Shown here piece after piece: positions 814 to 42,728 of a DNA stretch of 64,000 nt. Every line of letters begins with the position of its first letter. Position 1 is the first letter of the stretch. The notes below the pieces were generated by a model. The model saw only the letters and a program-made list of their open reading frames with translations, had not been told where the DNA came from and ran no database searches. The stretch is from Candidatus Nanopelagicales bacterium (GTDB lineage Bacteria > Actinomycetota > Actinomycetes > S36-B12 > UBA10799): the NCBI GenBank assembly GCA_037046735.1, contig JBAOHC010000021.1, positions 110,025-174,024 of the forward strand, read 5' to 3'. The position numbers and the translations under genes were made by a program.

Positions 814-1034
814 GCCAGAAGCCTAGAGCCCGAGCGGATGGGATCGGCGACCCAAGAAACGGCCCCCACACCCGCTTCTTCGGCGTACTCAGCGCCAGCC
901 GCCGATGGCCGGAGAACGGCAACCGCCGGAGGCCAACGGTCATCACCAAATACGGAACCCGCGGCGCCACCAAGTGCCACAGTGCGCTCTCTGTACCGAC
1001 GGGACGGCACAGAGTGCCACTGGCGGCATGCAGT

Positions 1035-11435: not shown

Positions 11436-11771
11436 AACTTCCCCTTCCGTCAAGTGCCGAGTGAAACACGCACCTACGACAAGTGGGGTTGGTCGTTGTC
11501 GACGATCGAAGCCGGGCACTGGCGATCATCTGGGGTCAGCTCTGAACAAGGGCACGACAAATCACACCGTGTCGCCTGCGCAACATCCCCCATGCTGACG
11601 CCCCCGCCGCCGACCTGAGGAAAAGGCGCCTGTTAACGCCCTGCCGTCGCCTGGGAGTTAACAAGGCGCAGCCAAACGATCCGTGGAGCTGACCTCCGCT
11701 GCCGGCTTCTTGTCATTTTCGCCGTAACCATCGGGCTGCCATTCGCTCCGCTCAGCCCAGCGCGGGCCTTA

Positions 11772-12109
11772 CCGCAGGACCTTGTGATCAGCCAGGTCTA
11801 CGCAGAAGGCGGTGAACCAGGCTCGTTCTTCCAGAGCGATTTCCCGGAACTGTTCAACCGAGGCCACTCCAGCGTCTGCCTCAACCATTGCGGTCTAGTG
11901 CGGGCATCGCCGTGACGTCCACTGTGACCGGCAAGGCCAAGAAGGGTAAGACCCGCTACTTCAGGCTGATCAAAGGCAGCCAGGCGGAGTTGTCCATCCG
12001 CACCTTCGGCCACAAAGGCTGGTGGTTGGTGATCACTCAGTCAGCGGCTGGCATCGGCTACATCCCATTCAGCCAGCGGATCTTCTACGTGGACGGCAGG
12101 CGGCTCTGA
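11772..12109 (+). pseudogene. decayed lamin-tail-domain (LTD) gene fragment
   Basis: The frame starting at about 11775 reads QDLVISQVYAEGGEPGSFFQSDFPELFNRGHSSVCLNHCGLVRASP*. This mirrors the LTD signature LvISEVYgGGGnsGatyknDFvELyN....v.L.GWsvqYaSa. Similarity continues weakly in another frame (ORF 11888..12109: ...GKTRYFRLIKG..). There is no start codon and no signal peptide, the frame is broken, and the local GC is lower. Confidence 0.3.
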
Positions 12110-12223
12110 ACGTCCTACGGGACCCATGTCACGCAACGTTCACTCGAACGTATTCCGGATTTGCGCCACACCCTGTCTCTCGCCAGCTCGCAGTGGGATA
12201 CTTGACAGCGAAGGTGAGGGTCA

Positions 12224-15200
12224 ATGAGCGAGATAGACATGACCACGCGGCACGAGGGCCACACCCCCGCGACCGCACCGGAGAGCCCACAGGCGGCCAG
12301 TGACATCGCGGCAGCGCCCGCCGACGCTCCCCCACCCACGCAGCGCCCGCCCTATCCGGGCCTCCCGGCGGTGATTCACGGCAACGGGGCGATCGCTCAT
12401 GTCATGCGGCATGTGTGCGGCGGCGTCATCGGCTACCCCATCACCCCGTCCACCGAGATCTCGGAACTGTTCGAGGCCGCCCGCTCCGAAGGCGGCGTCA
12501 ACGTGTGGGGCAAGCACCCCTTCTTCTTCGAACCCGAAGGGGAGCACTCCGCGCAGAGCGGTGCGCTCGGAGCAGCGCTCACCGGCGGGCAGTTCATCTC
12601 CAACGCCTCGTCGAGCCAGGGCATCCTCTACGCGATGGAGTCGCACTACGTGACCGTCGGTAAGAAGACGGGCGGCTTCGTGCTGCAGGTCGCGGCCCGC
12701 GTGGTGTCCAAGCACTCCCTCAACGTGATGGCCGGCCACGACGACGTCTACGCGCTGCTGTCGGCCGGCTACACGATCCTGTTCGGCTCGAACCCGCAGG
12801 AGGCCGCCGATCTCGCGGCGATTTCCTACCGGACCTCAGCACTGTCGCTCATCCCGGTCGCCAATGCCATGGATGGGTTTTCCACCAGCCACATGATCAG
12901 CGAGGCGTTGTTACCCGAACCCGAACTGCTGCGCGACTACCTCGGTGACCCCGCCGGGCGGATTGCGAGCCCCACTGTCGCCCAGGACATCCTGTTCGGT
13001 GCCAAAGGCCGAGTCGTCGCCTTGAACCAGTACCTCGACCGCCACCGCGATGACTTCCGACCGGCAGATCTCGCAGCTCTGAAAGCACACATCGACGACA
13101 TGGCCGCACAGGTGGAGGCCGACAATGACGGCGACCTGATCGAGACGACTCTGCGTTTTGTCCCTGACGAGCTGCACGGCCAGTGGCAGCGCCAATGGCG
13201 TAACGCTTTCCAGAAGGGGACCCGGCAACTCGTGCCTGCCCTGGTCGACGTGAACACTCCGGGGCTGACGGGCGCTGTCCAGAACCAGCCCGACTTCCAG
13301 GCCGGAGCGGTCGACCACCGCACTCACTTCGCCAGCGCAGTCCCAGCATTGACCCGCCGGGCCATGGCCGAGTACGCGACGCTGACCGGCCGGGCCTACT
13401 CCCCAGTCATGGCCTACGACTGCGACGACGCCGACTACATCATGATCGGGCTGGGCTCGATCACCGACGATGTCCGGGCGGTCCTACCCGTCTTGCGGGC
13501 ACGAGGGATGAAGGTCGGCGTCGTGAGCGTGAAGCTCCTGCAGCCGTTCCCCGAAGCGGAGCTCATCGAGGCGATCGCGGGCGCAAAGGCAATCACGGTG
13601 CTCGAGCGTTCCGACCAGACCGCCCTGACCGCTCTTGTGACCCAGGCGCTGTTCCGGGCCGGAGCCAACGCCGTTGAGCCGCGCCACGAGGGCATCCCCG
13701 CCCTCGCCACGCAGCCCCGCCTCACGACGGCGATCTTCGGGCTGGGCGGGCACGACGTCCAGCCCCGCCACATCATTGCCGCGTTCGAGCAGATGACCAC
13801 TGCTGACAGCGCCCCGCTGATCTACCTGGGCTCGCAGTTCTTCACGCAGACCTCATCCGCGCAGATGGCCGACGTACAGGCTCGCCTGCGGGTCGCCTAC
13901 CCGGAGACCGAACTCATGGCCTTGGAGACCGGCCCCAACCCCGTTCTCCTGCCCGAGTCCGCGATCCGGATCCGCTTCCATTCCGTGGGTGGGTACGGCA
14001 CCATCGCGACCGGCAAACTGCTGACCGACATCCTCGCCGGCGTCCTGCAGATGCACTCCAAATCCGCACCTAAATACGGCTCCGAAAAGAGCGGTGCGCC
14101 GACCAACTACTACATCACGCTGAGCCCGGAACCCGTGCTGATCACCAACGCCGAACTCGAAGACGTCGAGATCGTGGTGTCGCCTGACCATCGTGCGTTC
14201 ATCCACGCGAATCCGCTCAAGGGCCTGGTGGAAGGCGGCACCTTCATCCTGCAGTCCGACCTGTCGCCGGAGGACGTCTGGCGAGAGTTGCCACGGCACG
14301 CCCGGCGCACCATCCGCGACCGCCAGATCCGCTTCCTGGTCGTGGACGCATTCAAGGTGGCCAAGCGGCACGCCCCGACCGCGGAGCTCGAAACCCGCAT
14401 GATGGGCATCGCATTCATCGGAGCAGTCGTCGGTCACGTTGAGCAGATCGCCGGCGGCGCGTCCGAGGACGCCATCGCCGAGAAGGTCCGCGCGCAGATC
14501 CTCAAGAAGTTCGGCAGCAAGGGTGACGCCGTCGTCGAGGGCAACATGGAGGTCATCCGGGAGGGGATGGAAGCCACCGAGGTCGTCGACTACGACACCC
14601 CGCTGTTCCTGGCGATCGATGAGGCCCCGCCGGTGACTCTGCGGCGTCCCGGGACCGCCTCGACGCAGATGTGCGCCACAGCCGCGAGTACCGCCGGCCT
14701 GTTCGACCCGTCCTACTACGAGGATGCCACCGCCCGCCCGTTCCGGGAGGGCACGATCGGCGAGGCGCCAGTGCTGCCGGGGGCCGGGCTGTTCATGCCC
14801 GCGGGCACAGCAGCATCCAAGGACAAGGGGCTGTTCCGCCGGACGGTGCCCCACTTCGACTTCTCCACGTGCACCGGATGCATGGAGTGCGCCCTGGCGT
14901 GCCCCGACGCCGCGATCCCCAACACGATCCACGAGATCCACGATCTGATCCTGACCGGGATCAAGGAGATCGACGTCACCGAGGCGCAGCGGGATGCGCT
15001 GCGGGTCCACGTGTACACCCTCGCGGAGGGCGTGCGGGAGTCCTACCGGCAGGACAAGACCCCCCGCGCGTTCGCCGACATCGTCGCCGAGGTCGCGACT
15101 GGGATCGATGACGGGCAACCCACTCTGCGGCGCAACATCGAGCGACTGGTGGCGAAGCTGGCCACCTACCCGGTGGCCCGCACCCGGCCCTTCTTCGACG

Positions 15201-17308
15201 CGATGGAAAGCAGCGTCCCCGGCACCGGCGGGTTGTTCGCCGCCACGATCGACCCCTGGAAGTGCACAGGCTGTCTGGAGTGCATCGACGTCTGCGGGCC
15301 GGGTTCGTTGACCCCCACCGACGAGGACACCGACGTGCTCCTCGGGCTGCAGGACACGTTCGAGTTCATGACCGAACTGCCGAACACCCCTGCTCGCTTC
15401 CTCGAGGACTCAGCGACCCCGGGCGGAGACCTCAAACGCCTCATGCTGGACCGGGACAACTTCTACGCCACGACCGGGGGCCATGGCGCGTGCCGTGGCT
15501 GCGGTGAGGTCACGGCGATCCGGCTGGTGATGGCCGCGAGCCATGCACTGGCCGACGACCGGCGGCGTGCCCACCAGCGCGACCTCGACGACCTCGTGGA
15601 CCGCCTGCAGGCAAAGCTTGCGACTCTCACCGAGGAGCCCGCACGCCACCAGCGCGTGCAGGCGGCTCTGAACACTCTGCAGCGCAGGCTCTACCTCTAT
15701 GAGGGCGGTCCGACCGGTAACGGTCCCGCTCCGGTGGTGGTCGCCAACGCCACCGGGTGCAGCAGCGTCTACGCCTCGACCATGCCCTACAACTCCTACA
15801 GTGATCCGTGGGTGAACAGCCTGTTCCAGGACAGTTCCCCGCTGGCCAAGGGGATCTTCGAGGGCATCGCCGCGCAACTCACCGAGGATGTCCGCGCCTT
15901 GCGCATCGCAGCCCTCGAACTCGACGACGCCTACGACGAGGCCCGCGACGAGCGTGCCCTGCGGATCCTGTCCTGGGAGAAGTTCACCCCTGCTGAACTC
16001 GCGCTGCTGCCCACCATCATGAGCATCGGCGGCGACGGCGCGAGCTACGACATCGGCTTCGGTGCGATGTCGCGGGTACTGGCCAGCGACACTCCGCTGA
16101 AGATGCTGGTCCTGGACTCCGGGGCCTACTCCAACACCGGCGGCCAAGCCTCCACGTCGAGCTTCACCGGGCAGGACTCCGATCTCTCACGGTTCGGTGG
16201 TTCGCACACCGGCAAGCATGAGGCGCGCAAGGAACTGGCCCTCATCGCCTCCTTCCACCCGCATGTGTATGCGTGCTCGACGAGCACGGCGTTCCACGGC
16301 CACTTCCTCGAGACGACCCTTGAGTACCTGGGCTACGACAAGGCGCCGGCCGTCATGAACGTCTACACCCCCTGCGGGTCCGAGCACGGCATTCCCGAAT
16401 CGTCGTCCAACGCCCGGGCCCGGCTCGCCGTCGAGAGTCGCATGCATCCGCTGTTCGTGCATGACCCGCGCCGCGGCACCACCATGCACGACTGGTTCTC
16501 GATCGACGGCAACCCGGACGCGCAGTCGGCATGGACCACCAAGACGCTGGAGTACCTCGACGACTCCGGTGCCCTGCAGTTGCTGACCACACCCTTGACC
16601 CCGGCCGAGTTCGCACTCGGTGAGGTGCGGTTCAAGAAGCAGTTCCGTATCCTGCGGCCCGAGGAGCAGGCACTGGCCACCCCGATCGACGAGTACGTGG
16701 AACTGTCGGCGGAGCAACGCACCCAGCACGTGCCGTTCGTCTACGCGACCGATGACCAGCGGCACCTGATCAAGGTGGCCTGCTCGCACAAGATCGTCGC
16801 TCTGGTCGATGATCGGCGCCGGTACTGGCAGACATTGCAGTACCTGTCCGGGGTACACGAGGCGCAACTCACGGCATTGCACCGCGCGGACATCGAAGAC
16901 CTCCAGACGCGATTCGAAGAGGCCGCAGCGGCGCGCGAGACCTCCTTGGATGACATCGCGCGAGCCATGTCTGAGTTGGCGACTTCTAGCAGAGCACCAG
17001 CAGGAGCGGCTATGCCGGTCATGTCCTCTGCCGCCCCCAGGGCGGCCCCAACCGTCGCTGCGCCGGATGCGGCGGCGCACGGTCCGATCTGGCTCGACAC
17101 CGCCGACGAGGCGCTGTGCAACGACTGCGGCACGTGTTACCAGGAACTCCCCCAGTTCTTCGCGAAGACCACGGTGGTCATCGACGGCGAGGCCCGCGTG
17201 ATCGCGCGCATGATCCCGGGGGCAGCGCAGACGGTGGAAGTGACCCCCGACATCGCCAAACGGATCGATCGGGTGCGAGCCAACTGCGATGCGGAGATCA
17301 TCCGATGA
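12224..17308 (+). CDS. pyruvate:ferredoxin (2-oxoacid:acceptor) oxidoreductase-like enzyme, unusually long, with C-terminal ferredoxin-like domain
   Basis: SD AAGGTGAGGG lies before ATG 12224. Domain I: GNGAIAHVMRHVCGGVIGYPITPSTEI...EGEHSAQSGALGAALTGG. Two 4Fe-4S motifs: CTGCMECALACP and CTGCLECIDVCGP. TPP site: GHGACRGCGE...GGDGASYDIGFGAMSRV...LDSGAYSNTGGQ. The extra C-terminal module is CNDCGTCYQELPQFF...NCDAEI. Confidence 0.9.
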   Translation: MSEIDMTTRHEGHTPATAPESPQAASDIAAAPADAPPPTQRPPYPGLPAVIHGNGAIAHVMRHVCGGVIGYPITPSTEISELFEAARSEGGVNVWGKHPFFFEPEGEHSAQSGALGAALTGGQFISNASSSQGILYAMESHYVTVGKKTGGFVLQVAARVVSKHSLNVMAGHDDVYALLSAGYTILFGSNPQEAADLAAISYRTSALSLIPVANAMDGFSTSHMISEALLPEPELLRDYLGDPAGRIASPTVAQDILFGAKGRVVALNQYLDRHRDDFRPADLAALKAHIDDMAAQVEADNDGDLIETTLRFVPDELHGQWQRQWRNAFQKGTRQLVPALVDVNTPGLTGAVQNQPDFQAGAVDHRTHFASAVPALTRRAMAEYATLTGRAYSPVMAYDCDDADYIMIGLGSITDDVRAVLPVLRARGMKVGVVSVKLLQPFPEAELIEAIAGAKAITVLERSDQTALTALVTQALFRAGANAVEPRHEGIPALATQPRLTTAIFGLGGHDVQPRHIIAAFEQMTTADSAPLIYLGSQFFTQTSSAQMADVQARLRVAYPETELMALETGPNPVLLPESAIRIRFHSVGGYGTIATGKLLTDILAGVLQMHSKSAPKYGSEKSGAPTNYYITLSPEPVLITNAELEDVEIVVSPDHRAFIHANPLKGLVEGGTFILQSDLSPEDVWRELPRHARRTIRDRQIRFLVVDAFKVAKRHAPTAELETRMMGIAFIGAVVGHVEQIAGGASEDAIAEKVRAQILKKFGSKGDAVVEGNMEVIREGMEATEVVDYDTPLFLAIDEAPPVTLRRPGTASTQMCATAASTAGLFDPSYYEDATARPFREGTIGEAPVLPGAGLFMPAGTAASKDKGLFRRTVPHFDFSTCTGCMECALACPDAAIPNTIHEIHDLILTGIKEIDVTEAQRDALRVHVYTLAEGVRESYRQDKTPRAFADIVAEVATGIDDGQPTLRRNIERLVAKLATYPVARTRPFFDAMESSVPGTGGLFAATIDPWKCTGCLECIDVCGPGSLTPTDEDTDVLLGLQDTFEFMTELPNTPARFLEDSATPGGDLKRLMLDRDNFYATTGGHGACRGCGEVTAIRLVMAASHALADDRRRAHQRDLDDLVDRLQAKLATLTEEPARHQRVQAALNTLQRRLYLYEGGPTGNGPAPVVVANATGCSSVYASTMPYNSYSDPWVNSLFQDSSPLAKGIFEGIAAQLTEDVRALRIAALELDDAYDEARDERALRILSWEKFTPAELALLPTIMSIGGDGASYDIGFGAMSRVLASDTPLKMLVLDSGAYSNTGGQASTSSFTGQDSDLSRFGGSHTGKHEARKELALIASFHPHVYACSTSTAFHGHFLETTLEYLGYDKAPAVMNVYTPCGSEHGIPESSSNARARLAVESRMHPLFVHDPRRGTTMHDWFSIDGNPDAQSAWTTKTLEYLDDSGALQLLTTPLTPAEFALGEVRFKKQFRILRPEEQALATPIDEYVELSAEQRTQHVPFVYATDDQRHLIKVACSHKIVALVDDRRRYWQTLQYLSGVHEAQLTALHRADIEDLQTRFEEAAAARETSLDDIARAMSELATSSRAPAGAAMPVMSSAAPRAAPTVAAPDAAAHGPIWLDTADEALCNDCGTCYQELPQFFAKTTVVIDGEARVIARMIPGAAQTVEVTPDIAKRIDRVRANCDAEIIR

Positions 17309-20010
17309 CCGCCGAGCTCGACTATCAAGTTGAGTTGCTGCGCAGACGACTGGTCAGCGACCCGCGCGCCTTCCGTGAGGTGTTCATCTCCGAGGGGATG
17401 CAGGCCGTGGCCTGGGAGTTCCAGCAGCCCGAGTTGGGCGCGGAGTTCACCGATCGCATGTGGTCCATGCTGGTGCGCGGCGACGATGCGAGCACCCTGC
17501 TGATGCGGTTCGTGTGGAACCTTCCCCTGTCAGGCAAGCGCAAATTCATCCGCGCCCTGGACACACATCTGTCGCAGCGCTACCCGATGTTCGAGGGCCT
17601 GTCGCAAGGCTGGCCCGCGCACAGTTGCATCGAGCCGTACGTGCGCGACGCCGACCAGCGCGCTGAGGACTTCGGCCTGGTGAACCAGGGTTTCCTGGGA
17701 TACCTGGAGCTGGGATACACCCAGCAAGAGGTCGACTTGATCGTGTGGCTCGAGGTGCTGCGCGACAAGCAGTGCGAGGAGAAGCCCTGCGAGCTCGGGG
17801 TGTTCCTGGCCGAGTGCCGTGAACCCACCGGCGGCTGCCCGGTGGCCATCCACATTCCGCAGGTGATCGAGTTGATCGGCACGGGTCGGTTCCAGGAAGC
17901 GCTGGAGCTGCTGGAATCCAGCAATCCGCTGCCGGACGTGACGGGTCGGGTCTGCCCGCAGGAGCTGCAGTGTCAGGGGGTGTGTATCCAGAAGAAGCCG
18001 ATCGCAATCGGCCAGCTCGAGTGGTACCTGCCCGAACGCGAGAAACGGATCGATCCACAGGGCACCGCCCGACGTTTGGCACGGGTCCGCGATCCGTGGG
18101 AGCGGGCGACGCACCCGCCGGTGGCCATCATCGGGTCGGGTCCATCAGGCCTCATCAACGCCTATCTGCTGGCTGCCCAGGGCTTCCCGGTGACGGTCTT
18201 CGAGGCATTCCACGCCCTCGGCGGGGTGCTGCGGTACGGCATCCCCGAGTTCCGCCTGCCCAATGAGCTGATCGACGACGTCGTGGCGAAGATCCGGATG
18301 CTCGGCGGGCGGTTCGTGATGAACTTCGTGGTCGGCAAGACGGCGACCCTGCAGGACCTGCGCGATGCCGGCTTCGCCCGGATCTTCGTGGGCACCGGGG
18401 CAGGGCTGCCGCGGTTCATGAACGTTCCCGGCGAACACCTGCTCAACGTGATGTCGGCCAACGAATTCCTGACCCGGGTCAACCTCATGCAGGGGCTGCG
18501 GGCCGACTTCGAAACCCCGCTGCCCGAGACCGACGGCAAGGAGATCCTGGTCATCGGGGGCGGCAACACCGCGATGGATGCCGCCCGCACCGCGCGGCGA
18601 CTGGGCGGCCACGTGACGATCGTGTACCGACGCACCCAGGCGGAGATGCCCGCGCGGGTGGAGGAGCAGCACCACGCCCTGGAGGAGGGCATCGTGTTCG
18701 AGGAGTTGCGCTCACCGATCGAGTTCATCGGCAATGACCGCGGCTTCGTGGCTGCCGCGACCCTCGACCAGATGGAACTCGGCGAGCCTGATGACTCCGG
18801 GCGCCGTCGCCCTGTGTCCACCGGGCGCACGGAAACGAAGCGCGCGGATCTGGTCATCATGGCCCTGGGCAACGCATCGAATCCGATCATCAAGGATTCC
18901 GAGCCGCGGCTGGAGACCTCAAAGTGGGGCACGATCAATCTGGCGCATGAGGGCTCGCAGGAGACCACGCTGGACGGCGTCTACACCGGCGGCGACGCCG
19001 CACGCGGCGGCTCCACCGCAATTCTGGCGGCAGGCGACGGTCAGTCCGCCGCCCGCGAGATCCTGGCCATCGACGATCTGACACCCGAGGTGATCTCCGA
19101 TTCCGTGCAGCGAGCGCGCGACTACACCGACCTGGCCAACACAGAGGCCACCATCGTGGCCCGCACGGAACTCAGCGACGGCATCGTCGAGTTCACGGTG
19201 CGCGCGCCGTTGGTCGCCCGCTCGGCCCAAGCCGGGCAGTTCGTGCGGGTGCTGCCCGCCCCCGACGGTGAGCTCATTCCGCTCACCCTGGCGGACTGGG
19301 ATGGCGCCAAGGGCACGATCTGCCTCGTCGTGCAGGGGGTGGGAACCAGCAGCATTGAGATCAACCGGATGGGCGTCGGCGACGTCTTCACGGGAGTCGC
19401 AGGACCGCTGGGGCGGCCCAGCGAGATCACCCGCCATGACCAGGGAACGGTGGTCTTCACCGCTGGCGGCCTCGGCCTGCCGCCGGTGTACCCGATCATG
19501 CGAGCGCATCTGCTGGCCGGCAACCATGTGACGCTGATCAGCGGTTTCCGCAGTGCGGACCTGATGTTCTGGACCGGTCCGGGCGAGCGGATCGAGACGC
19601 TGCGCGCGGAGTTCAGCGATCAGCTCGACGTCGTGTACACGACCAACGATGGGTCGTTCGGCACTCCTGGCTTCGTGACGGGCCCCCTGGAGGAGTTGCT
19701 TCAGCAGAAGCGGGTTGCCGAGGTCGTCACCATCGGGCCGCCGATGATGATGCGTGCGGTCAGTGACCTCAGCCTGCGATACGAGACGCCCTGCGTGGCC
19801 AGCCTGAACTCGATCATGGTGGATGCCACCGGCATGTGCGGAGCGTGCATGGTGCCGGTCGTCATCGAGGGCAAAGCCGTGCGCAAGCACGCGTGCATCG
19901 ACGGACCCGAGATCAACTCCCACATCATCGAGTGGGACAAGTTCCTACCCCGCTTCAACCAGTTCAGCGCGCAGGAGAAGGCCAGCCGCGTCCGGCACGG
20001 GTTGGCCTGA
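17305..20010 (+). CDS. fused NfnB/GltD-like (Fe-S + FAD/NAD(P)) and NfnA/PyrK-like (FAD/2Fe-2S) oxidoreductase with unknown N-terminal domain
   Basis: Lies within ORF 17116..20010. ATG 17305 overlaps the PFOR stop as ATGA. Fe-S helical domain: GGCPVAIHIPQVIELI...GRVCPQELQCQGVC. Dinucleotide site: VAIIGSGPSGL. A second Rossmann motif is ILVIGGGNTAMDAA. The C-terminal PyrK/SudB-like part contains GQFVRVL...IPLTLAD...GMCGACMVPV...HACIDGPE. Confidence 0.85.
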   Translation: MTAELDYQVELLRRRLVSDPRAFREVFISEGMQAVAWEFQQPELGAEFTDRMWSMLVRGDDASTLLMRFVWNLPLSGKRKFIRALDTHLSQRYPMFEGLSQGWPAHSCIEPYVRDADQRAEDFGLVNQGFLGYLELGYTQQEVDLIVWLEVLRDKQCEEKPCELGVFLAECREPTGGCPVAIHIPQVIELIGTGRFQEALELLESSNPLPDVTGRVCPQELQCQGVCIQKKPIAIGQLEWYLPEREKRIDPQGTARRLARVRDPWERATHPPVAIIGSGPSGLINAYLLAAQGFPVTVFEAFHALGGVLRYGIPEFRLPNELIDDVVAKIRMLGGRFVMNFVVGKTATLQDLRDAGFARIFVGTGAGLPRFMNVPGEHLLNVMSANEFLTRVNLMQGLRADFETPLPETDGKEILVIGGGNTAMDAARTARRLGGHVTIVYRRTQAEMPARVEEQHHALEEGIVFEELRSPIEFIGNDRGFVAAATLDQMELGEPDDSGRRRPVSTGRTETKRADLVIMALGNASNPIIKDSEPRLETSKWGTINLAHEGSQETTLDGVYTGGDAARGGSTAILAAGDGQSAAREILAIDDLTPEVISDSVQRARDYTDLANTEATIVARTELSDGIVEFTVRAPLVARSAQAGQFVRVLPAPDGELIPLTLADWDGAKGTICLVVQGVGTSSIEINRMGVGDVFTGVAGPLGRPSEITRHDQGTVVFTAGGLGLPPVYPIMRAHLLAGNHVTLISGFRSADLMFWTGPGERIETLRAEFSDQLDVVYTTNDGSFGTPGFVTGPLEELLQQKRVAEVVTIGPPMMMRAVSDLSLRYETPCVASLNSIMVDATGMCGACMVPVVIEGKAVRKHACIDGPEINSHIIEWDKFLPRFNQFSAQEKASRVRHGLA

Positions 20011-20810: not shown

Positions 20811-21635
20811 GTGCTCCCCCATGTGACCGCGACGCGTTACGTGACGCCGTTACGGGAGGGCGGGTCACTACCCGGGTTGATGGAGGCCGACGACCTCGGC
20901 ACCTACGTCGTCAAGTTCCACGCCGCCGGGCAGGGTCGCAAGGCGCTCGTGGCCGAGGTGATCGCTGGTCGCATTGCCCGTGGCTTGGGTTTGCGGGTGC
21001 CCGATCTTGTGACCGTTGAGGTCGACGCCGTGCTGGCCAATGGCGAGCCGGATCAGGAAGTGCAGGATCTCCTGCGACGAAGTGCGGGGCTCAACCTCGG
21101 GATCGACTTCCTGCCGGGCGCCCTCGACTTCGATCCGGTGGCCTTCCCTCTCGATGCGCAAGAGGCAGGCCGGGTCCTCTGGTTCGACGCGCTGGTCGCG
21201 AATATGGACAGGTCGAGACGAAACCCCAATCTGCTCCAGTGGCAGCAGCTGTGGCTGATCGACCACGGCGCCACCCTGACGTTCCATCATCGATGGGAGA
21301 CCGCCACGGCCAGCGACACCCGTCCGTACGACGCCACGGACCACGTCCTGCTGGGAAGTAATCCAGACGTGCTTGGTGCCAATGATGAATTCGCCGATGC
21401 AGTGACACGTGAGCTCGTGGACGATGCCGTGAGCGACGTGCCGGAGCTGTGGCTCGCAGAGGAACCGGGATTCCGGGACGTCGAAGCCGTCCGGGCCGCT
21501 TACGCTGAACGACTGCTGGCGCGCTTCGCCGCACGCGAACTGTGGTTGCCAGCCCTCCTGGAGGCCGTCGCCCGGCCACCGGCCCCGCGCCGTGTGCAGG
21601 GACGACCTGATTGGCTCGGTGGCAGCAGTGGCTGA
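20811..21635 (+). CDS. HipA-like / PI3-PI4-kinase-fold protein kinase family protein
   Basis: N-terminal block: TPLREGGSLPGLMEADDLGTYVVKFHAAGQG. Catalytic-loop-like block: FDALVANMDRSRRNPNLL. DFG-equivalent: LWLIDHGATL. Confidence 0.7.
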   Translation: MLPHVTATRYVTPLREGGSLPGLMEADDLGTYVVKFHAAGQGRKALVAEVIAGRIARGLGLRVPDLVTVEVDAVLANGEPDQEVQDLLRRSAGLNLGIDFLPGALDFDPVAFPLDAQEAGRVLWFDALVANMDRSRRNPNLLQWQQLWLIDHGATLTFHHRWETATASDTRPYDATDHVLLGSNPDVLGANDEFADAVTRELVDDAVSDVPELWLAEEPGFRDVEAVRAAYAERLLARFAARELWLPALLEAVARPPAPRRVQGRPDWLGGSSG

Positions 21636-23225: not shown

Positions 23226-23474
23226 CTACTCCGAGCAGTGGGTTGAATTCAGGGCCAGCAGACCACGCCGTCGATGCAGCATCATTGAGTCGGTGCCGGG
23301 TAAAGGGCCGGCATGACCTCCGATAGGCGTGAACGTGACGCCGCCGACCAAGCCCATAGCGAAGACACCATGACGAGCACCGCGGCCCAGGATCCTTTCG
23401 CGGGCGACGAGCCGAGCGCGACCCTGGGGGACAGTGGTGAAACGCGCCCGGTCTAAGAACAGGGCACGTTTCAC
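23226..23474 (-). CDS. hypothetical 82-aa ORF translationally coupled to the TPR gene
   Basis: The GTG at 23474 forms GTGA with the TPR gene stop (23471-23474). GC3 is moderate and I recognised no motif. It sits between the TPR and zinc-ribbon genes on the same strand. Confidence 0.25.
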   Translation of the reverse strand: MKRALFLDRARFTTVPQGRARLVARERILGRGARHGVFAMGLVGGVTFTPIGGHAGPLPGTDSMMLHRRRGLLALNSTHCSE

Positions 23475-24955
23475 CCGTGTTCGGGACTCACCGGAACCTC
23501 GTCGCCAGCATGCTTACGCAGGCTGTCGTTAGCCGGCAGGAAATACTGGCTGAGTTCGCGGGCCCGGTCGGTGTTCCCCTGCACCAGGTGCAGGGCGATG
23601 GCATGCGAGAAGTCCTGCCCGGCTCCCGGTTCGTCACTGTCGAGCCGCGACCGACCACGCACCTCATAGCAGTAGGCCGTACCGAGACTCGCTTCCCGAG
23701 CCGGGGTCTGAGCAATGACCTGGCTGGCGATCTCCGTGGCCCGGTCGACATGACCGGTCTGCTCCAGGGCAAGGGAGTACACGCCCAGGAACTCCCGGTA
23801 ACTCGCGTCCTCGGCCGTCGCATCGGGCGGCCACAGACTCGTATGCTCCTCCGCGATCCGGCGGCATTGTTCGAACTGCTGGTCCTGGCGCAGGTTGTCC
23901 AACCAGCGCACGACACTCCACCGCACGGCTGGCTGGTCGCCCGCCTGCCCGAACGCGTGGACCAAACGCTCGTTGGTCCGCGCCGCCTGTCGGTAGTCAC
24001 CGGCGTAGTGAAGGGCCACCGCCCGACGGGTGTCACAGCGCAAGCCCTCAGCGTCCCTGCCCGTCGCATCGAACAGCACCCACGCGTTGGCGAAGGCCTC
24101 GAGGGCGGCCGGCAGGTCCTCGCGTTCGAAGAACGCCTCGGCCCGCAGTTGCTCACACCGCGCCGCCCCCACGAAGTCGTCGGCCTGCCGATAGGCAGTA
24201 AGGGCCTGTTCGGCCTGGCCCAACGCCTGCTCGGCCTCCCCACGACGCAGAAAGACCTCGGCCAATCGATAGCGCGCGTACCGATCATCCGCCGTGGACG
24301 AGGACACATTCGCCAGCACCAAACATCCCCGGGCCAGTTCTAACGCCTCGTCGAGGTGACCGAGGAACAGGTGTACAGACACCGCGAAGTCGTCGACGAC
24401 CGCGACCAGATCCGGGCGCTCTGCCGTCCGGAAGTGGTCCCGACCGGCTCGGCAGACCACCAAGGCTTCCTCATCTCGGTTCAACAGGTACAGAGCCCGC
24501 GCCTGCAAGAAACAGGCGTCACCAGCGACGGTGCGCTCACCCTCGAACTCCGCGAGCTCCCGGCTTTGAACGGCCGCTGAAAGTTGCGCCTCTACATCCC
24601 CCAGGACCCGATAGCAGTCCGCCAAGCACCACAGAACGCTTGCGGCATCCCGGCTCATTGCAGCCTCACCGTAGGCTGCGGCTGCTCGCTGGTACGTCTG
24701 AACAGCCGCGTCGACGTCGCCTGCACTGAAGCAGGCAGCCCCCTGCAGCCGCATGGCGGTGGCCGCCTGACCGATATCGCCGAGCTGCGCAGCGGTGGAC
24801 TCGACCTCCTGCCACAGCGTCAGCGCCCGGTCGTAATCGCGGCGACTCGATGCCCGATTCGCCAGCTCGAACAGCACGTCGATACGCTCGCGGCCGGATG
24901 CCTGCGTCAGCGCTGTCCACAGATCCTCTTCGGCCATCTCCTGCAGATCACTCAT
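23471..24955 (-). CDS. tetratricopeptide-repeat protein
   Basis: There are repeated 34-40 aa A/L/Y-rich helical units along its 494 aa (..YDRALTLWQE.., ..AVQTYQRAAAAYGE.., ..YRLAEVFLRRGEAEQALGQAEQALTAY..). Confidence 0.8.
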   Translation of the reverse strand: MSDLQEMAEEDLWTALTQASGRERIDVLFELANRASSRRDYDRALTLWQEVESTAAQLGDIGQAATAMRLQGAACFSAGDVDAAVQTYQRAAAAYGEAAMSRDAASVLWCLADCYRVLGDVEAQLSAAVQSRELAEFEGERTVAGDACFLQARALYLLNRDEEALVVCRAGRDHFRTAERPDLVAVVDDFAVSVHLFLGHLDEALELARGCLVLANVSSSTADDRYARYRLAEVFLRRGEAEQALGQAEQALTAYRQADDFVGAARCEQLRAEAFFEREDLPAALEAFANAWVLFDATGRDAEGLRCDTRRAVALHYAGDYRQAARTNERLVHAFGQAGDQPAVRWSVVRWLDNLRQDQQFEQCRRIAEEHTSLWPPDATAEDASYREFLGVYSLALEQTGHVDRATEIASQVIAQTPAREASLGTAYCYEVRGRSRLDSDEPGAGQDFSHAIALHLVQGNTDRARELSQYFLPANDSLRKHAGDEVPVSPEHG

Positions 24956-40997: not shown

Positions 40998-42728
40998 CTA
41001 TATGCCGACAACCGGCCGGTACCTGGGTTTCCACATCGAGTCCAGGACCGCTTGCAGTGCGTTGTCCGGAGTCGCCCTCGCCACACCCTCCCGAACGGCC
41101 TCCTCAACCACTGCCACCGCCACGGCCGCGGAGGTCGCCCGGATGTCGGCGATCTCAGGCAGCAGGGGACTGCCTGGCCCATGGATCTCGACCAGTTGGG
41201 CGACCGCTTTGGCCGCCGCGTTGAGCATCCCGTCGGTGATCTTGGTGGCCCTGGCCACGATGGCGCCAAGGCCCAGCCCGGGATACAACAGGGCATTGTT
41301 GGCCTGCCCGATGTGGTGACTGACACCGTCGATGGTCACCGGATCGAACGGGCTGCCGGTCACGATCAAGGCCTGGCCGTCAGTCCAGGCCAGCAGGTCC
41401 GCCGGCACAGCCTCGGCCAACGGAGTGGGGTTGCTCATGGGCAGGATGAACGGCCGCGCCACATGCGAGTGCATCTCACGGACCACCTGCTCGGTGAACG
41501 CACCGTGGACCGTGGACGTGCCCACCAGGATGGTGGGCTGGACCCGCCGGACCGTCTCCAGCAGGGAGATCGCACCTAGCTCGTCGCGCTCGTAGTCGCG
41601 GACCTCAGCGGCGGGCCGGGCGTAGCCACGGTGGTAGTCGCGAAGCTCGGGGAGCTGATCGTGCAGCAGCCCGGGGCGGTCGATCAGCCAGATCCGGCGC
41701 GAAGCCTCCTCGCGGCTGTATCCCGATTCCACGATGGCGTCGCGGATCTGGTCGGCGATCCCCACACCGGCTGTGCCGGCACCAAACACGACCACCCGGT
41801 GATCGGACAGCGGCATGGCGGTGACCTTGACCCCGGACAGGATCGCGGCGAAGGCGATCGCCCCCGTGCCCTGCATATCGTCGTTGAAGGTACACACCTG
41901 GTCGCGGTATCGATCCAGGATCCGGCGGGCATTCGTCTCCCCGAAATCCTCCCAGTGCAGAAGCGCATTGGGGAACATCTTGCTGGCGGTGCTGACGTAG
42001 GTCTCGATGAGTTCGTCGTACTTCTCGCCGCGCAGCCGGGCGTGCTTCTCACCCAGGTACCCGGGGTCGGTCAGCAGCCCAGTACGGTCGGTGCCGACAT
42101 CGATGACGACGGGAATCGCCCGTTCTGGATCGACCCCCGCGGCCGCCACGTAGACGCTGATCTTGCCGATCGCGATGTCGATGCCGCCGACCCCCCAGTC
42201 GCCGATGCCGAGGATCGCCTCGGAGTCGGTGGCCACCAGCAGGTCCACATCATCGGGGCCGAGCCCGAGGTTCGTGAAGGCCTTCGGCACATCCTGCGGC
42301 CAGCGGGACTGCAGATACACCCCCCGCGGACGGCGGAAGGCGTGGCTGTACTCACGGATCGATTCGCCCACGGTCGGCGTGTAAACGATCGGCATAAGGT
42401 CGGGCAGGTCGTCGATCAGCAACCTGTAGAACAGCGTCTCGTTACGGTCGTGCAACTCGCGCAGATAGACGTTCTTGGCCAACGGGCCCGGCTGCTCAGC
42501 CAACTGTCGACGCACCCGCAACAACTGTTGGTCGATGGTCTCGACACGCTGCGGCAACAGACCGACCAGGCCAAGCGCCTCCCGTTCGGCGTCGGAGAAG
42601 GCGGACTGCTTGTTCAACCGCGGATCGGCCAGCAGAGCCTGCCCGCGCAGGGTCGTTCGGCGCGCTGGGAGTTCGTTCACACTGTCGGTTCTACCGTCCG
42701 AGGCAATCGTTTGCGCATCGACGCGCAC
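40998..42728 (-). CDS. NAD(P)-dependent malic enzyme
   Basis: LNKQSAFSDAEREALGLVGLLP, ETLFYRLL, VYTPTVG, FNDDMQGTGAI, VVFGAGTAGVGIA. Confidence 0.9.
   Translation of the reverse strand: MRVDAQTIASDGRTDSVNELPARRTTLRGQALLADPRLNKQSAFSDAEREALGLVGLLPQRVETIDQQLLRVRRQLAEQPGPLAKNVYLRELHDRNETLFYRLLIDDLPDLMPIVYTPTVGESIREYSHAFRRPRGVYLQSRWPQDVPKAFTNLGLGPDDVDLLVATDSEAILGIGDWGVGGIDIAIGKISVYVAAAGVDPERAIPVVIDVGTDRTGLLTDPGYLGEKHARLRGEKYDELIETYVSTASKMFPNALLHWEDFGETNARRILDRYRDQVCTFNDDMQGTGAIAFAAILSGVKVTAMPLSDHRVVVFGAGTAGVGIADQIRDAIVESGYSREEASRRIWLIDRPGLLHDQLPELRDYHRGYARPAAEVRDYERDELGAISLLETVRRVQPTILVGTSTVHGAFTEQVVREMHSHVARPFILPMSNPTPLAEAVPADLLAWTDGQALIVTGSPFDPVTIDGVSHHIGQANNALLYPGLGLGAIVARATKITDGMLNAAAKAVAQLVEIHGPGSPLLPEIADIRATSAAVAVAVVEEAVREGVARATPDNALQAVLDSMWKPRYRPVVGI

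Follow-up and report, generated by a model that had tools for sequence, protein, structure and literature searches.

The usual view of PFOR-type enzymes is that they pass electrons to a diffusible ferredoxin of low potential, chiefly in anaerobes. In the window analysed here, a stretch of 64,000 nucleotides from a Candidatus Nanopelagicales bacterium, one open reading frame with an ATG start encodes a single chain of 1694 aa (ORF list and translation) that raises the question of what a PFOR does with a ferredoxin domain of its own, and where its electrons go. The sequence-only reading had proposed that the fused acceptor makes the electron path self-contained. Our analysis points to another arrangement, in which the enzyme keeps its carrier on a tether and the neighbouring gene codes for a dedicated flavoprotein linked to NAD(P).

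Identity and domain plan of the long PFOR

The hallmark motifs of the family are all present: GYPITPSTEI at aa 70-79, the cluster motifs CTGCMECALACP at aa 883-894 and CTGCLECIDVCGP at aa 1014-1026, and the TPP motif, composed of GGDGASYDIGF at aa 1269 and NTGGQ at aa 1304-1308, both almost invariant among the homologs. The earlier account of these motifs required one amendment, as the second cluster motif ends in C-G-P and not in C-P. Matches to Pfam models (Table 1; Fer4 families at ~868-905 and 1003-1025) and HMMER alignments gave the domain order I-II-III-V-VI in one chain, which is the canonical order of single-chain PFORs, and NCBIfam PorB-type models matched aa 1264-1411. The closest solved structures in the PDB were the PFORs of M. 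thermoacetica (HMMER, E 6e-81) and D. africanus (E 5e-71); the chain aligned to 6cin and 1b0p as five separate, colinear stretches. The same two structures were the best Foldseek matches of the predicted model (E 1e-26 to 1e-22), with a TM of just 0.36, the model being poor. Cysteines for three internal [4Fe-4S] clusters are present, two sets in domain V (C883/886/889/893 and C1014/1017/1020/1024) and one, for the proximal cluster, in domain VI (Cys 1090/1093/1179/1384), and in the alignment to solved PFORs they fall on the blocks GAC.GCGE, TGCSS and YTPC. In total, the motifs place 16 Cys for four predicted [4Fe-4S] clusters. The assignment to a genuine PFOR-type enzyme is thereby confirmed at the level of sequence.

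Table 1 Features of the long PFOR gene and its downstream partner
Feature	Position in the window	Strand	Evidence
Long PFOR-family 2-oxoacid oxidoreductase gene	12224..17308 (stop codon included)	+	ORF list, translation, Pfam, PDB, Foldseek
N-terminal Ala/Pro-rich extension, aa 1-45	12224..12358	+	Homolog coverage
Domain I (POR_N), aa 67-239, with substrate-carboxylate residues T74 and R159	12422..12940	+	Pfam, HMMER alignment
Insertion 1 between domains I and II, aa 229-345	12908..13258	+	Alignment gap, AF2
Domains II and III (PFOR_II aa 403-469, POR aa 589-783)	13430..14572	+	Pfam, PDB alignment
Ferredoxin-like domain V, two cluster motifs	14870..15295	+	Motifs, Pfam Fer4 families
75-aa helical insertion splitting the domain V motifs, aa 909-1000	14948-15223	+	Gap vs 6cin residues 712-728, AF2
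TPP-binding domain VI	15485..16648	+	Motifs, alignment, NCBIfam PorB-type matches
61-aa helical-hairpin insertion in domain VI, aa 1104-1170	15533-15733	+	Alignment, AF2
Start of C-terminal extension: small α/β unit aa 1476-1520, helix aa 1522-1588	16649..16987	+	AF2
Flexible low-complexity tether, aa 1589-1623	16988..17092	+	AF2, homolog comparison
C-terminal single-[4Fe-4S] ferredoxin domain, aa 1624-1694	17093..17305	+	Pfam, profile, AF2, Foldseek
ATGA overlap, PFOR stop codon / partner start codon	17305..17308	+	Sequence
Partner gene, 901-aa fused NfnB-NfnA homolog	17305..20010	+	Translation, Pfam, PDB, NCBIfam
Partner N-terminal region, aa 1-165	17305..17799	+	Pfam, PDB
NfnB-like half of partner, aa 168-586	17806..19062	+	Pfam, PDB
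NfnA-like half of partner, aa 617-894	19153..19986	+	PDB, residue-level alignment

The most likely substrate, judged from aligned residues, is pyruvate. In a residue-level HMMER alignment to 7plm/1b0p, T74 and R159 correspond to T31 and R114 of the D. africanus enzyme, while L166 and V168 take the positions of its L121 and I123, small hydrophobic residues that suit a small substrate like pyruvate. The protein scored only 383.6 bits against the PFOR equivalog model TIGR02176 (NCBIfam cut-off 911.35), so it is to be regarded as a member of the family rather than as a canonical PFOR equivalog, and its pyruvate specificity rests on few aligned residues. This low score would also fit another substrate (2-oxoglutarate, a branched-chain or aromatic 2-oxoacid, or oxalate), which would turn the locus into a different 2-oxoacid:NAD(P)+ oxidoreductase. 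The NCBI name, '2-oxoacid:acceptor oxidoreductase family protein', is generic, and an NAD-coupled OFOR is known in the NADH-dependent phenylglyoxylate dehydrogenase, whose subunit models match weakly. Since single-chain PFORs are the top full-length hits in sequence and fold alike, and Thr and Arg are kept at positions 31 and 114, we regard this alternative as quite unlikely.

Compared with the single-chain PFORs of the NifJ/YdbK type (6CIN, 1B0P), the protein is alike in domain order, TPP motif, three-cluster cysteines and Thr/Arg residues but is ~520 residues longer. Pfam, HMMER against solved PFORs and Foldseek all bore out the description of a PFOR-like enzyme with internal insertions. The three additions first listed (the insertion at aa 229-345, the helix with its Ala/Pro linker and the terminal ferredoxin) were also recovered, but the list was incomplete, as the additional residues are distributed over at least six sites. 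Defined against 6cin as reference (HMMER alignment), helical insertions follow domain I and lie within the domain V ferredoxin and within domain VI. The first contributes ~88 residues beyond 6cin in the gap between the HMMER stretches 51-228 and 346-908 and is predicted to form a helical subdomain (AF2 helices at aa 260-334, local pLDDT 81-92); it is kept in orthologs from Leptospiraceae, Chromatiaceae and Magnetococcales and is missing from the Methylococcaceae type described below. Helices were likewise predicted for the insertions in domain V (pLDDT 63-87) and domain VI (pLDDT 80-89). A further ~62 residues are scattered over aa 346-908, and a 31-aa deletion relative to 6cin lies at aa 1227-1263. 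As the AF2 model of aa 40-1239 was poor overall (pLDDT 63), the insertions are not placed relative to the distal cluster.

The size of the protein had been taken as unusual ("outsized"), a view that did not survive comparison with its relatives. Its full-length, colinear homologs number more than 110; they measure 1633-1724 aa and share 69-99% identity with it. A single orthologous family, spread over Actinomycetota, Chromatiaceae, Magnetococcales, Roseiarcus and Leptospiraceae, has the long form as its standard. Length and architecture are normal for this large family; the possibility that the form is both common and already characterised applied in its first half only, as it is common but not characterised. 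The N-terminal extension is shared with the closest relatives only (P0001-P0003, covering 100% of the query), most homologs starting near aa 40 and covering 97-98%. Cultured strains with the long form include Nostocoides australiense Ben110, Fodinibacter luteus, Piscicoccus intestinalis, Kineosporia and Actinotalea. Artificial joining of separate genes by an assembly error or a frameshift is refuted by these comparative data, and we give it practically no weight: although the family does contain such cases (P0076, a frameshifted read-through of 2587 aa from PFOR into the partner, and P0017 and P0082, whose tails are out of frame), the same colinear architecture with an in-frame ferredoxin tail recurs in the independent homologs, cultured strains among them, and proteobacterial orthologs retain 55-59% identity over aa 40-1694.

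The C-terminal extension and its ferredoxin domain

The long PFOR ends in a 215-aa extension that is absent from 6CIN and 1B0P and consists, in this order, of a small α/β unit, a 67-residue helix, a disordered linker and a compact ferredoxin domain for a fourth cluster (AF2 model of aa 1476-1694, mean pLDDT 88.9). The α/β unit and the long helix were conserved across 614 representative proteins and had no sequence match in Pfam or the PDB. The linker was modelled without secondary structure (pLDDT 60-65). Across 94 homologs, the stretch from the helix end to the first Cys measured 46-84 aa, and 57% of its residues were Ala, Pro or Gly (30%, 14% and 13%, respectively) with no conservation of sequence. 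Low pLDDT and composition together suggest that the tether is mobile. The lipoyl domains of 2-oxoacid dehydrogenase E2 subunits are carried on Ala/Pro-rich swinging-arm linkers, and both systems share length-variable, low-complexity tethers with a small cofactor domain at the end; this is an analogy only, and the cargo would be an Fe-S cluster here and is lipoamide in E2.

The terminal domain carries CNDCGTCYQ at aa 1632 and NCDAEI at aa 1687, with C1632, C1635, C1638 and C1688 as predicted ligands, and none of these four Cys varies in any intact homolog listed, across phyla. Its match to Fer4_15 (aa 1628-1694) was marginal, at 23.0 bits against a cut-off of 22.4, and Fer4_13 matched the tails of distant relatives with 25-31 bits (cut-off 24.5). 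A profile built from 19 tails retrieved the ferredoxins 7m1o (E 3e-4) and 7m1n (E 8e-4) from the PDB with all four Cys aligned, and the domain aligned over its full length with a solved 72-aa ferredoxin. The AF2 model was compact (pLDDT above 90 over aa 1624-1694), and its best two Foldseek matches were the monocluster ferredoxins 1iqz and 2z8q (probabilities 0.99 and 0.91, TMt 0.55, with weak E-values of 0.07 and 0.14). Invariant Cys, family models, profile and fold agree with the earlier claim of a terminal module that resembles ferredoxins, and support a genuine, built-in ferredoxin domain with a single predicted cluster.

The extension might instead be chiefly protective or structural, and not a mobile electron carrier. 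A precedent is domain VII of the D. africanus PFOR, an addition at the C-terminus by which the clusters are shielded (PMC12337175), and many hosts of the long form are aerobic or facultative (Nanopelagicales, Nostocoides, Kineosporia, Cellulomonas). Both are C-terminal add-ons to a single-chain PFOR, but the extension in the window is ~3.5 times longer and has no detected sequence similarity to domain VII: the HMMER alignment to 1b0p/7plm stops near residue 1118-1128 of 1231, and the extension alone as query found no PFOR in the PDB. Moreover, a static shield would be oddly built as a ferredoxin domain with four Cys at the end of a disordered linker of 35 aa, and it would leave unexplained the strict association with Nfn or Rnf genes described below. 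A chiefly protective role therefore appears improbable, although protection and electron transfer can coexist.

The downstream flavoprotein and the gene pair

The stop codon of the long PFOR gene overlaps the start codon of the next gene as ATGA, a predicted translational coupling of the two. The partner scored 1595.7 bits against NF009415 (NCBIfam PRK12779, cut-off 1519). Its NfnB-like half contains Fer4_20, for two [4Fe-4S] clusters, and an FAD/NAD(P)H Pyr_redox_2 domain (Pfam), and matched 5jca_L (E 3.5e-105) and 4ylf_B (E 2e-101) with the Cys block aligned. The NfnA-like half combines a domain that binds FAD/NAD with a [2Fe-2S] site of the Asp + 3 Cys pattern, its DATGMCGAC...HACIDGPE aligning to DGTGMCGAC...FACVDGPE of Nfn, and matched 5jca_S (E 9e-62) and 4ylf_A (E 8e-50). 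In comparison with classical Nfn, the partner keeps both halves, which score E 1e-105 and 1e-62 against NfnI, as well as the cofactor motifs and the [2Fe-2S] site, but the halves are fused B-then-A behind an extra 110-165 aa; no Pfam or PDB match was found before aa 157-175, and the first ~110 aa are without counterpart in classical NfnB. A single 901-aa chain in this order rules out the classical two-subunit nfnA-then-nfnB arrangement. It is a 'Pattern C' Nfn in the terms given in the available excerpts of Liang, Huang and Wang 2019 (PMC6405883), which describe Pattern C proteins as uncharacterised and state that sequence alone cannot decide between bifurcation and plain ferredoxin:NAD(P)+ reductase activity. 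Published trees place Pattern C at the base or root of the Nfn family. A PFOR is among the neighbouring genes in the Figure 2 legend of PMC6405883; in the excerpts available, a link of Pattern C to the long PFOR is not discussed.

In 79 of the 80 genome loci the partner is the next gene downstream on the same strand, the lone exception being a contig end. The same pairing was present in Leptospiraceae, Propionibacteriaceae, Chromatiaceae, Magnetococcales and Roseiarcus and is near-universal over five phylum-level lineages, while no other conserved flanking gene was found among the neighbours of the loci examined. Divergence of PFOR and partner was correlated (r = 0.87, n = 67), as is expected of any two genes inherited together vertically. 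No description of the pair as a unit was found in the literature searched.

Given this constant, coupled neighbour, the ferredoxin domain is most likely a link to NAD(P) and not a terminus, and the electron path, contrary to the sequence-only reading, is probably not self-contained. A self-contained PFOR would use the fused ferredoxin as a built-in first acceptor for assorted soluble partners, with the Nfn-like gene independent and merely co-regulated. The ferredoxin domain is real, classical Nfn enzymes use free ferredoxin according to the available excerpts of PMC6405883, and ~70 of the 80 loci show 18-214 nt between the two tblastn matches and not an overlap; conserved operon structure could mean co-regulation only. 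Yet the pairing persists across the five lineages while all other neighbours vary, and the genes overlap in the window and overlap or abut with zero gap in several relatives (L002-L007, L086 and L089).

A sister clade bears on the same question. The Methylococcaceae-type long PFOR, which has a Fer4_13 tail and is distant from the window protein (~28% identity), appears from its gene context to be partnered by a different ferredoxin:NAD+ oxidoreductase, Rnf: an rnfB-like gene lies directly upstream in 3 of 3 loci examined, and at one of them the PFOR stands between this gene and rnfCDGEA. This speaks for an Fd:NAD(P)+ output that is dedicated and not general-purpose, and overall we consider a self-contained PFOR unlikely.

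Published contexts hint at such coupling of PFOR to a ferredoxin:NAD(P)+ oxidoreductase. In the accessible parts of the respective reports, PFOR genes lie between rnfB and rnfC in the Solemya velum symbiont genome (PMC4287430), and a Propionibacterium PFOR, the knockout of which cripples growth, is flanked by and co-transcribed with NfnB-like and DHOD-like genes (PMC7650540). In Propionibacterium two separate genes encode the partners, whereas the window has one fused gene, and those parts of both reports mention neither the long form nor a tethered ferredoxin domain.

A proposed route from 2-oxoacid to NAD(P)

We consider it probable that the genes at 12224-20010 form one module, in which the tethered ferredoxin wires the PFOR to a ferredoxin:NAD(P)+ oxidoreductase so that free ferredoxin is unneeded. 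The first gene would supply a divergent single-chain PFOR with TPP, a chain of three clusters and a fourth [4Fe-4S] cluster in the tethered domain; the second, translationally coupled to it, would supply the fused NfnB-NfnA iron-sulfur flavoprotein. At the TPP site, pyruvate and CoA would be converted to acetyl-CoA and CO2, and the three internal clusters would conduct the electrons. The tethered ferredoxin would load at the distal cluster and swing across to the NfnB-like half and its [4Fe-4S] clusters, and the flavins of the partner would then reduce NAD(P)+. As in classical Nfn, low-potential electrons and NADH may combine to give 2 NADPH, and in the reverse direction NAD(P)H could drive pyruvate synthesis. 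The presumed electron donor of the partner would thus be a tethered ferredoxin, where that of classical Nfn is free, and the PFOR, in contrast to other single-chain PFORs, would belong to a family with an obligate Nfn-type gene partner.

A bolder version, which we hold only tentatively, is that PFOR and partner form a stable complex and a new type of flavin-based electron-confurcating/bifurcating enzyme that works without free ferredoxin. Its forward reaction would be pyruvate + CoA + NADH + 2 NADP+ -> acetyl-CoA + CO2 + NAD+ + 2 NADPH. In reverse it would be an NADPH-driven pyruvate synthase, with which aerobes and facultatives could carboxylate acetyl-CoA without a low-potential ferredoxin pool. 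If true, Pattern C Nfn proteins would never be free-standing transhydrogenases but subunits of 2-oxoacid oxidoreductases.

In the eukaryotic PNO (Euglena, Cryptosporidium), the PFOR is fused with a module that resembles NADPH-cytochrome P450 reductase (CPR). The proposed module follows the same idea, in that PFOR chemistry would be linked straight to a nicotinamide cofactor without free ferredoxin, but the output modules are unrelated. PNO has a flavodoxin/FNR-type CPR domain in the same chain, whereas the window has a tethered [4Fe-4S] ferredoxin and a separate Nfn-type flavoprotein; Pfam found no such CPR domain in the 1694-aa protein, and the partner is of the Nfn/GltD/PyrK type.

The module as predicted is directly testable in cultured strains or by co-expression. 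The current labels, a generic PFOR and 'glutamate synthase small chain', would give a wrong electron acceptor and a wrong NADPH balance in metabolic reconstructions. Among the hosts concerned are Actinomycetota from freshwater and activated sludge, with Nostocoides/Tetrasphaera among them, as well as purple sulfur bacteria, Magnetococcales and Leptospiraceae. If the proposed module is real, it would give the uncharacterised Pattern C Nfn family a concrete role, represent a counterpart of the eukaryotic pyruvate:NADP+ oxidoreductase that evolved independently in bacteria, and explain how many aerobic or facultative bacteria can carry out PFOR chemistry without an exposed pool of free ferredoxin.

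The long PFOR and its extra length

The ORF list and the translation place the long PFOR in a single ATG-initiated reading frame of 1694 codons, and every hallmark motif quoted in the sequence-only reading was found in the product (table). Two CxxCxxCxxxCP clusters had been described; both cysteine blocks are present, but the second is followed by G-P instead of an immediate P. The domain scan suggested in the same reading returned the Pfam families POR_N, PFOR_II, POR, several Fer4 families and Fer4_15. The closest solved relatives are the PFORs of M. thermoacetica (6cin, E 6e-81) and D. africanus (1b0p/7plm, E 5e-71). With 383.6 bits, the protein misses the threshold of the curated PFOR equivalog TIGR02176 (911.35). 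In alignment with the D. africanus enzyme, T74 and R159 fall on the substrate-carboxylate residues T31 and R114, and L166 and V168 on the pocket residues L121 and I123. Of the 21 cysteines, 12 lie at positions of the three canonical clusters. Judged from its sequence, the long PFOR is a divergent member of the single-chain PFOR fold family; its database name is '2-oxoacid:acceptor oxidoreductase family protein'.

A chance or chimeric ORF is ruled out by over 110 colinear homologs (1633-1724 aa, 69-99% identity to the long PFOR). The protein had been called outsized, as if unusual; these homologs share the same length and architecture, and the family in which the long form is standard is widespread.

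Length differences were read from a HMMER alignment to 6cin (1171 aa). All three additions named earlier (the insertion at aa 229-345, the linker and the terminal ferredoxin) were recovered, but the list was incomplete, as the length differs from 6cin in more places. An AF2 model of aa 40-1239 (pLDDT 63, domain I <50) served solely to assign secondary structure locally within the insertions: in this poor overall model, helical elements were predicted at aa 260-334 (local pLDDT 81-92) and aa 905-979 (63-87), and a hairpin at aa 1091-1159 (80-89). Foldseek ranked 6cin and 1b0p first for the same model (E 1e-26 to 1e-22), where the TM of 0.36 against PFORs is no measure of quality.

Coordinates of features in the window and in the long PFOR (aa, residues of the long PFOR unless stated otherwise)
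Feature	Position	Strand	Details
93-aa ORF	12022-12303		runs into start of long PFOR gene
Long PFOR gene	12224-17308	+	1694 aa
Partner gene	17305-20010	+	901 aa; directly downstream of long PFOR
Partner N-terminus	17305-17799		partner aa 1-165
HipA_2-like kinase ORF	20811-21635	+	after operon
Large TPR-repeat protein	23471-24955	-	after operon
Malic enzyme gene	40998-42728	-	Pfam malic, Malic_M; ~21 kb downstream of operon
GYPITPSTEI	aa 70-79
CxxCxxCxxxC block 1	aa 883-893
CxxCxxCxxxC block 2	aa 1014-1024
GGDGASYDIGF	aa 1269
NTGGQ	aa 1304
CNDCGTCYQ	aa 1632
NCDAEI	aa 1687
POR_N	aa 67-239		Pfam
PFOR_II	aa 403-469		Pfam
POR	aa 589-783		Pfam
Several Fer4 families	~aa 868-905 and 1003-1025		Pfam
Fer4_15	aa 1628-1694		Pfam
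Paired segment	aa 51-228		6cin 6-181
Paired segment	aa 346-908		6cin 211-711
Paired segment	aa 1001-1103		6cin 729-822
Paired segment	aa 1171-1226		6cin 829-891
Paired segment	aa 1264-1428		6cin 960-1118
Ala/Pro-rich extension	N-terminal		~45 aa vs 6cin
Insertion noted earlier	aa 229-345		+88 aa
Diffuse gain	aa 346-908		~+62 aa
Insertion between the two cluster motifs of internal ferredoxin domain V	aa 909-1000		+75 aa
Insertion in domain VI	aa 1104-1170		+61 aa
Deletion	aa 1227-1263		-31 aa
C-terminal gain	beyond aa 1428		+213 aa
Small α/β unit	aa 1476-1520		AF2
Single 67-residue helix	aa 1522-1588		AF2
Segment without secondary structure	aa 1589-1623		AF2, pLDDT 60-65
Compact domain	aa 1624-1694		AF2, pLDDT >90

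The C-terminal tether and its ferredoxin domain

The C-terminal region (aa 1476-1694) was modelled by AF2 from 48 aligned sequences with a mean pLDDT of 88.9. In 94 homologs, the stretch from the helix end to the first cysteine spans 46-84 aa of unconserved sequence composed of 30% Ala, 14% Pro and 13% Gly. The predicted long helix and this Ala/Pro/Gly-rich tether bear out the helical and Ala/Pro linker proposed after the TPP domain. In the Leptospiraceae ortholog P0275 (L083:7001-12337), eight consecutive histidines (HHHHHHHH) stand in the tether directly before the ferredoxin domain.

Searched against the PDB as a single sequence, the C-terminal extension gave noise and one marginal ferredoxin match, and a profile was required. 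Built from 19 tails of several phyla, this profile matched the 72-aa 'putative ferredoxin' 7m1o (E 3e-4) and 7m1n (E 8e-4) over the whole length, including all four cysteines. The top two Foldseek matches of the C-terminal model in the PDB were both monocluster [4Fe-4S] ferredoxins, from B. thermoproteolyticus (1iqz, probability 0.99, TMt 0.55, E 0.07) and P. furiosus (2z8q, probability 0.91, TMt 0.55, E 0.14); such weak E-values are expected for a domain of only 70 residues. Pfam Fer4_13 scores above cut-off in distant relatives, and the four tail cysteines are invariant among all intact homologs. The built-in ferredoxin domain is thereby upheld, and the cysteine motif, whose failure to align with ferredoxins would have spoken against it, does align. 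Gene 1 encodes all that a PFOR requires and, in addition, a disordered tether that carries a domain for a fourth cluster. The extension is unrelated to domain VII of the D. africanus enzyme, which a 2025 study describes as unique to that enzyme among structurally characterised PFORs (PMC12337175).

With aa 1430-1694 as query, exhaustive HMMER searching retrieved 614 representative proteins at E ≤ 1e-3. Several proteins of ~580-870 aa, including P0329 (604 aa, Elusimicrobiota), P0325, P0365, P0370 and P0378, carry a post-TPP extension and Fer4_13 tail as in long PFORs; the N-terminal 300-700 residues of these P0329-like proteins had no Pfam match, and they are annotated as hypothetical.

A co-inherited Nfn-type partner

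The stop codon of the long PFOR overlaps the start of the partner gene in an ATGA at 17305-17308. The partner shows the Pfam order Fer4_20, Pyr_redox_2, NAD_binding_1 and DHODB_Fe-S_bind. In the PDB, its aa 168-586 match large Nfn subunits (P. furiosus NfnI, E 3.5e-105; T. maritima NfnB, E 2e-101) and its aa 617-894 the corresponding small subunits (E 9e-62 and 8e-50). The Asp plus three Cys [2Fe-2S] motif is conserved. Gene 2 has the full set of Nfn features. It passes the NCBIfam equivalog PRK12779 (1595.7 bits vs 1519), which bears only a placeholder name, and databases list it as 'sulfide/dihydroorotate dehydrogenase-like FAD/NAD-binding protein' or 'glutamate synthase small chain'. Its published counterparts are the fused Nfn homologs that Liang, Huang and Wang call 'Pattern C' and describe as ~200 residues longer, with C-terminal NfnA-type domains, and as uncharacterised (PMC6405883). 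The N-terminal 110-165 residues of the partner had no Pfam or PDB sequence match; this stretch accounts for the greater length of 'Pattern C' proteins relative to classical Nfn.

The C-terminal module was scanned in one genome per species, which yielded 319 confirmed stretches. Among the best 80 of these, hosts are Actinomycetota throughout (including Nanopelagicales, Cellulomonas, Actinotalea, Demequina, Kineosporia, Piscicoccus, Fodinibacter and Nostocoides australiense Ben110), bar one record labelled Proteobacteria. The partner lies immediately 3' of the long PFOR on the same strand in 79 of these 80 loci; in the sole exception, the contig ends 166 nt past the PFOR gene. The survey of distribution proposed earlier also revealed the pair in a Leptospiraceae MAG (PFOR 1778 aa, partner 983 aa), Chromatiaceae (1691 and 969 aa), Magnetococcales (1680 and 956 aa), Roseiarcus (11-nt overlap) and Propionibacteriaceae (4-nt overlap). 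The proteobacterial PFORs share 53-59% identity with the window protein, and the two complete ones are colinear across aa 40-1694 with a tail of the same type. Identities of PFOR and partner to the window proteins correlate (r = 0.87 over 67 loci), which is weak evidence because any co-inherited pair would show the same. The two genes are co-inherited and, judging by the overlap, co-translated. We hold the architecture as described to be very nearly certain.

Two loci in MAG MFD04716.bin.2.293 (L021 and L074) each carry a long PFOR with partner; either this is a true duplication, or the bin holds mixed strains. The 2587-aa P0076 (L001:8001-15764) was rejected as a natural PFOR-partner fusion, as it is a frameshift artefact with the ferredoxin domain out of frame, and was kept solely as a synteny example. 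Like P0076, the MAG-derived P0017 and P0082 have frameshifts in the GC-rich ferredoxin-tail region, which automated domain-architecture surveys would take for natural fusions or truncations.

The surroundings are an ordinary chromosomal context with purF-, purL- and purA-type genes, malic enzyme, TrkH and permeases. None of the 17 other flanking ORFs recurs among 81 loci, one close relative excepted, and neither the HipA_2-like kinase nor the TPR-repeat protein is conserved beside the pair in other genomes. The malic enzyme is another pyruvate/NAD(P)-linked enzyme in the window; its position relative to the operon is probably coincidental. In the ~600 nt upstream of the long PFOR (11619-12223), the only ORF of ≥80 aa is the 93-aa one, and no sigma-70-like consensus was found; sigma-70 and terminator scans performed no better than on shuffled sequence. 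Rfam returned no family at gathering score across the whole window and no TPP riboswitch upstream of the long PFOR.

Proposed electron route

A distant clade of long PFORs in Methylococcaceae (~28% identity to the window protein, 1606-1639 aa) lacks the first insertion and has a Fer4_13-type tail (CTTCDEC...AEKC..IIHPG). In the three loci examined (L082, L084, L085), no Nfn-type neighbour was found and an rnfB-like gene lies directly upstream of the long PFOR; the metagenome contig L084 (5072-15475) reads rnfB-like, long PFOR, rnfC, D, G, E, A. Such a placement of PFOR genes, between rnfB and rnfC, has already been reported for the Solemya velum symbiont, in a paper whose excerpted text does not mention the long form or the ferredoxin tail (PMC4287430). 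L082 also carries, a few kb from the long PFOR and beside a radical-SAM gene, a separate two-gene OFOR (429-2841, -) of 614 aa (POR_N + TPP_enzyme_C) and a 192-aa POR gamma subunit. That the genes of two different ferredoxin:NAD(P)+ oxidoreductases, Nfn-type and Rnf, are alternative fixed neighbours of long PFORs is the strongest argument for the tail as a dedicated output wire.

The tethered ferredoxin would accept electrons from the domain V distal cluster and hand them on to the two [4Fe-4S] clusters in the NfnB-like half, whose flavins may reduce NAD(P)+. The fused ferredoxin had been thought to make the electron path self-contained; given the ATGA overlap and the pairing in 79 of the best 80 of 319 loci, the route probably continues into the co-encoded flavoprotein. 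As candidate docking surfaces we consider the helical insertions, the long 67-residue helix and the N-terminal part of the partner that had no match. In classical Nfn, two NADP+ are reduced at the expense of reduced ferredoxin and NADH (PMC6405883). If the partner retains this chemistry, the overall reaction would be pyruvate + CoA + NADH + 2 NADP+ -> acetyl-CoA + CO2 + NAD+ + 2 NADPH. The pyruvate couple lies near -500 mV and NAD(P) near -320 mV, which makes the forward reaction strongly favourable; the reverse direction, pyruvate synthesis, would require bifurcation. We lean towards a functional coupling of the long PFOR with its partner, and regard a bifurcating or confurcating complex of the two as a tentative and rather doubtful proposal.

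The eukaryotic pyruvate:NADP+ oxidoreductase would follow the same principle by analogy, although its output module is unrelated. A PFOR/Nfn-like complex was proposed in Propionibacterium from co-transcription and a knockout (McCubbin et al., PMC7650540); there the partners are two separate genes, in contrast to the fused partner of the window. The electrochemically characterised Magnetococcus PFOR is the two-subunit Mmc1_1741/1742 enzyme and not the long form. Full-text literature searches turned up no paper on the long form, its tethered ferredoxin or the PFOR/Pattern C pairing as a unit; the form is common but, within these searches, not already characterised. The system is no new category; it combines known kinds, PFOR plus Nfn, in a new and uncharacterised arrangement.
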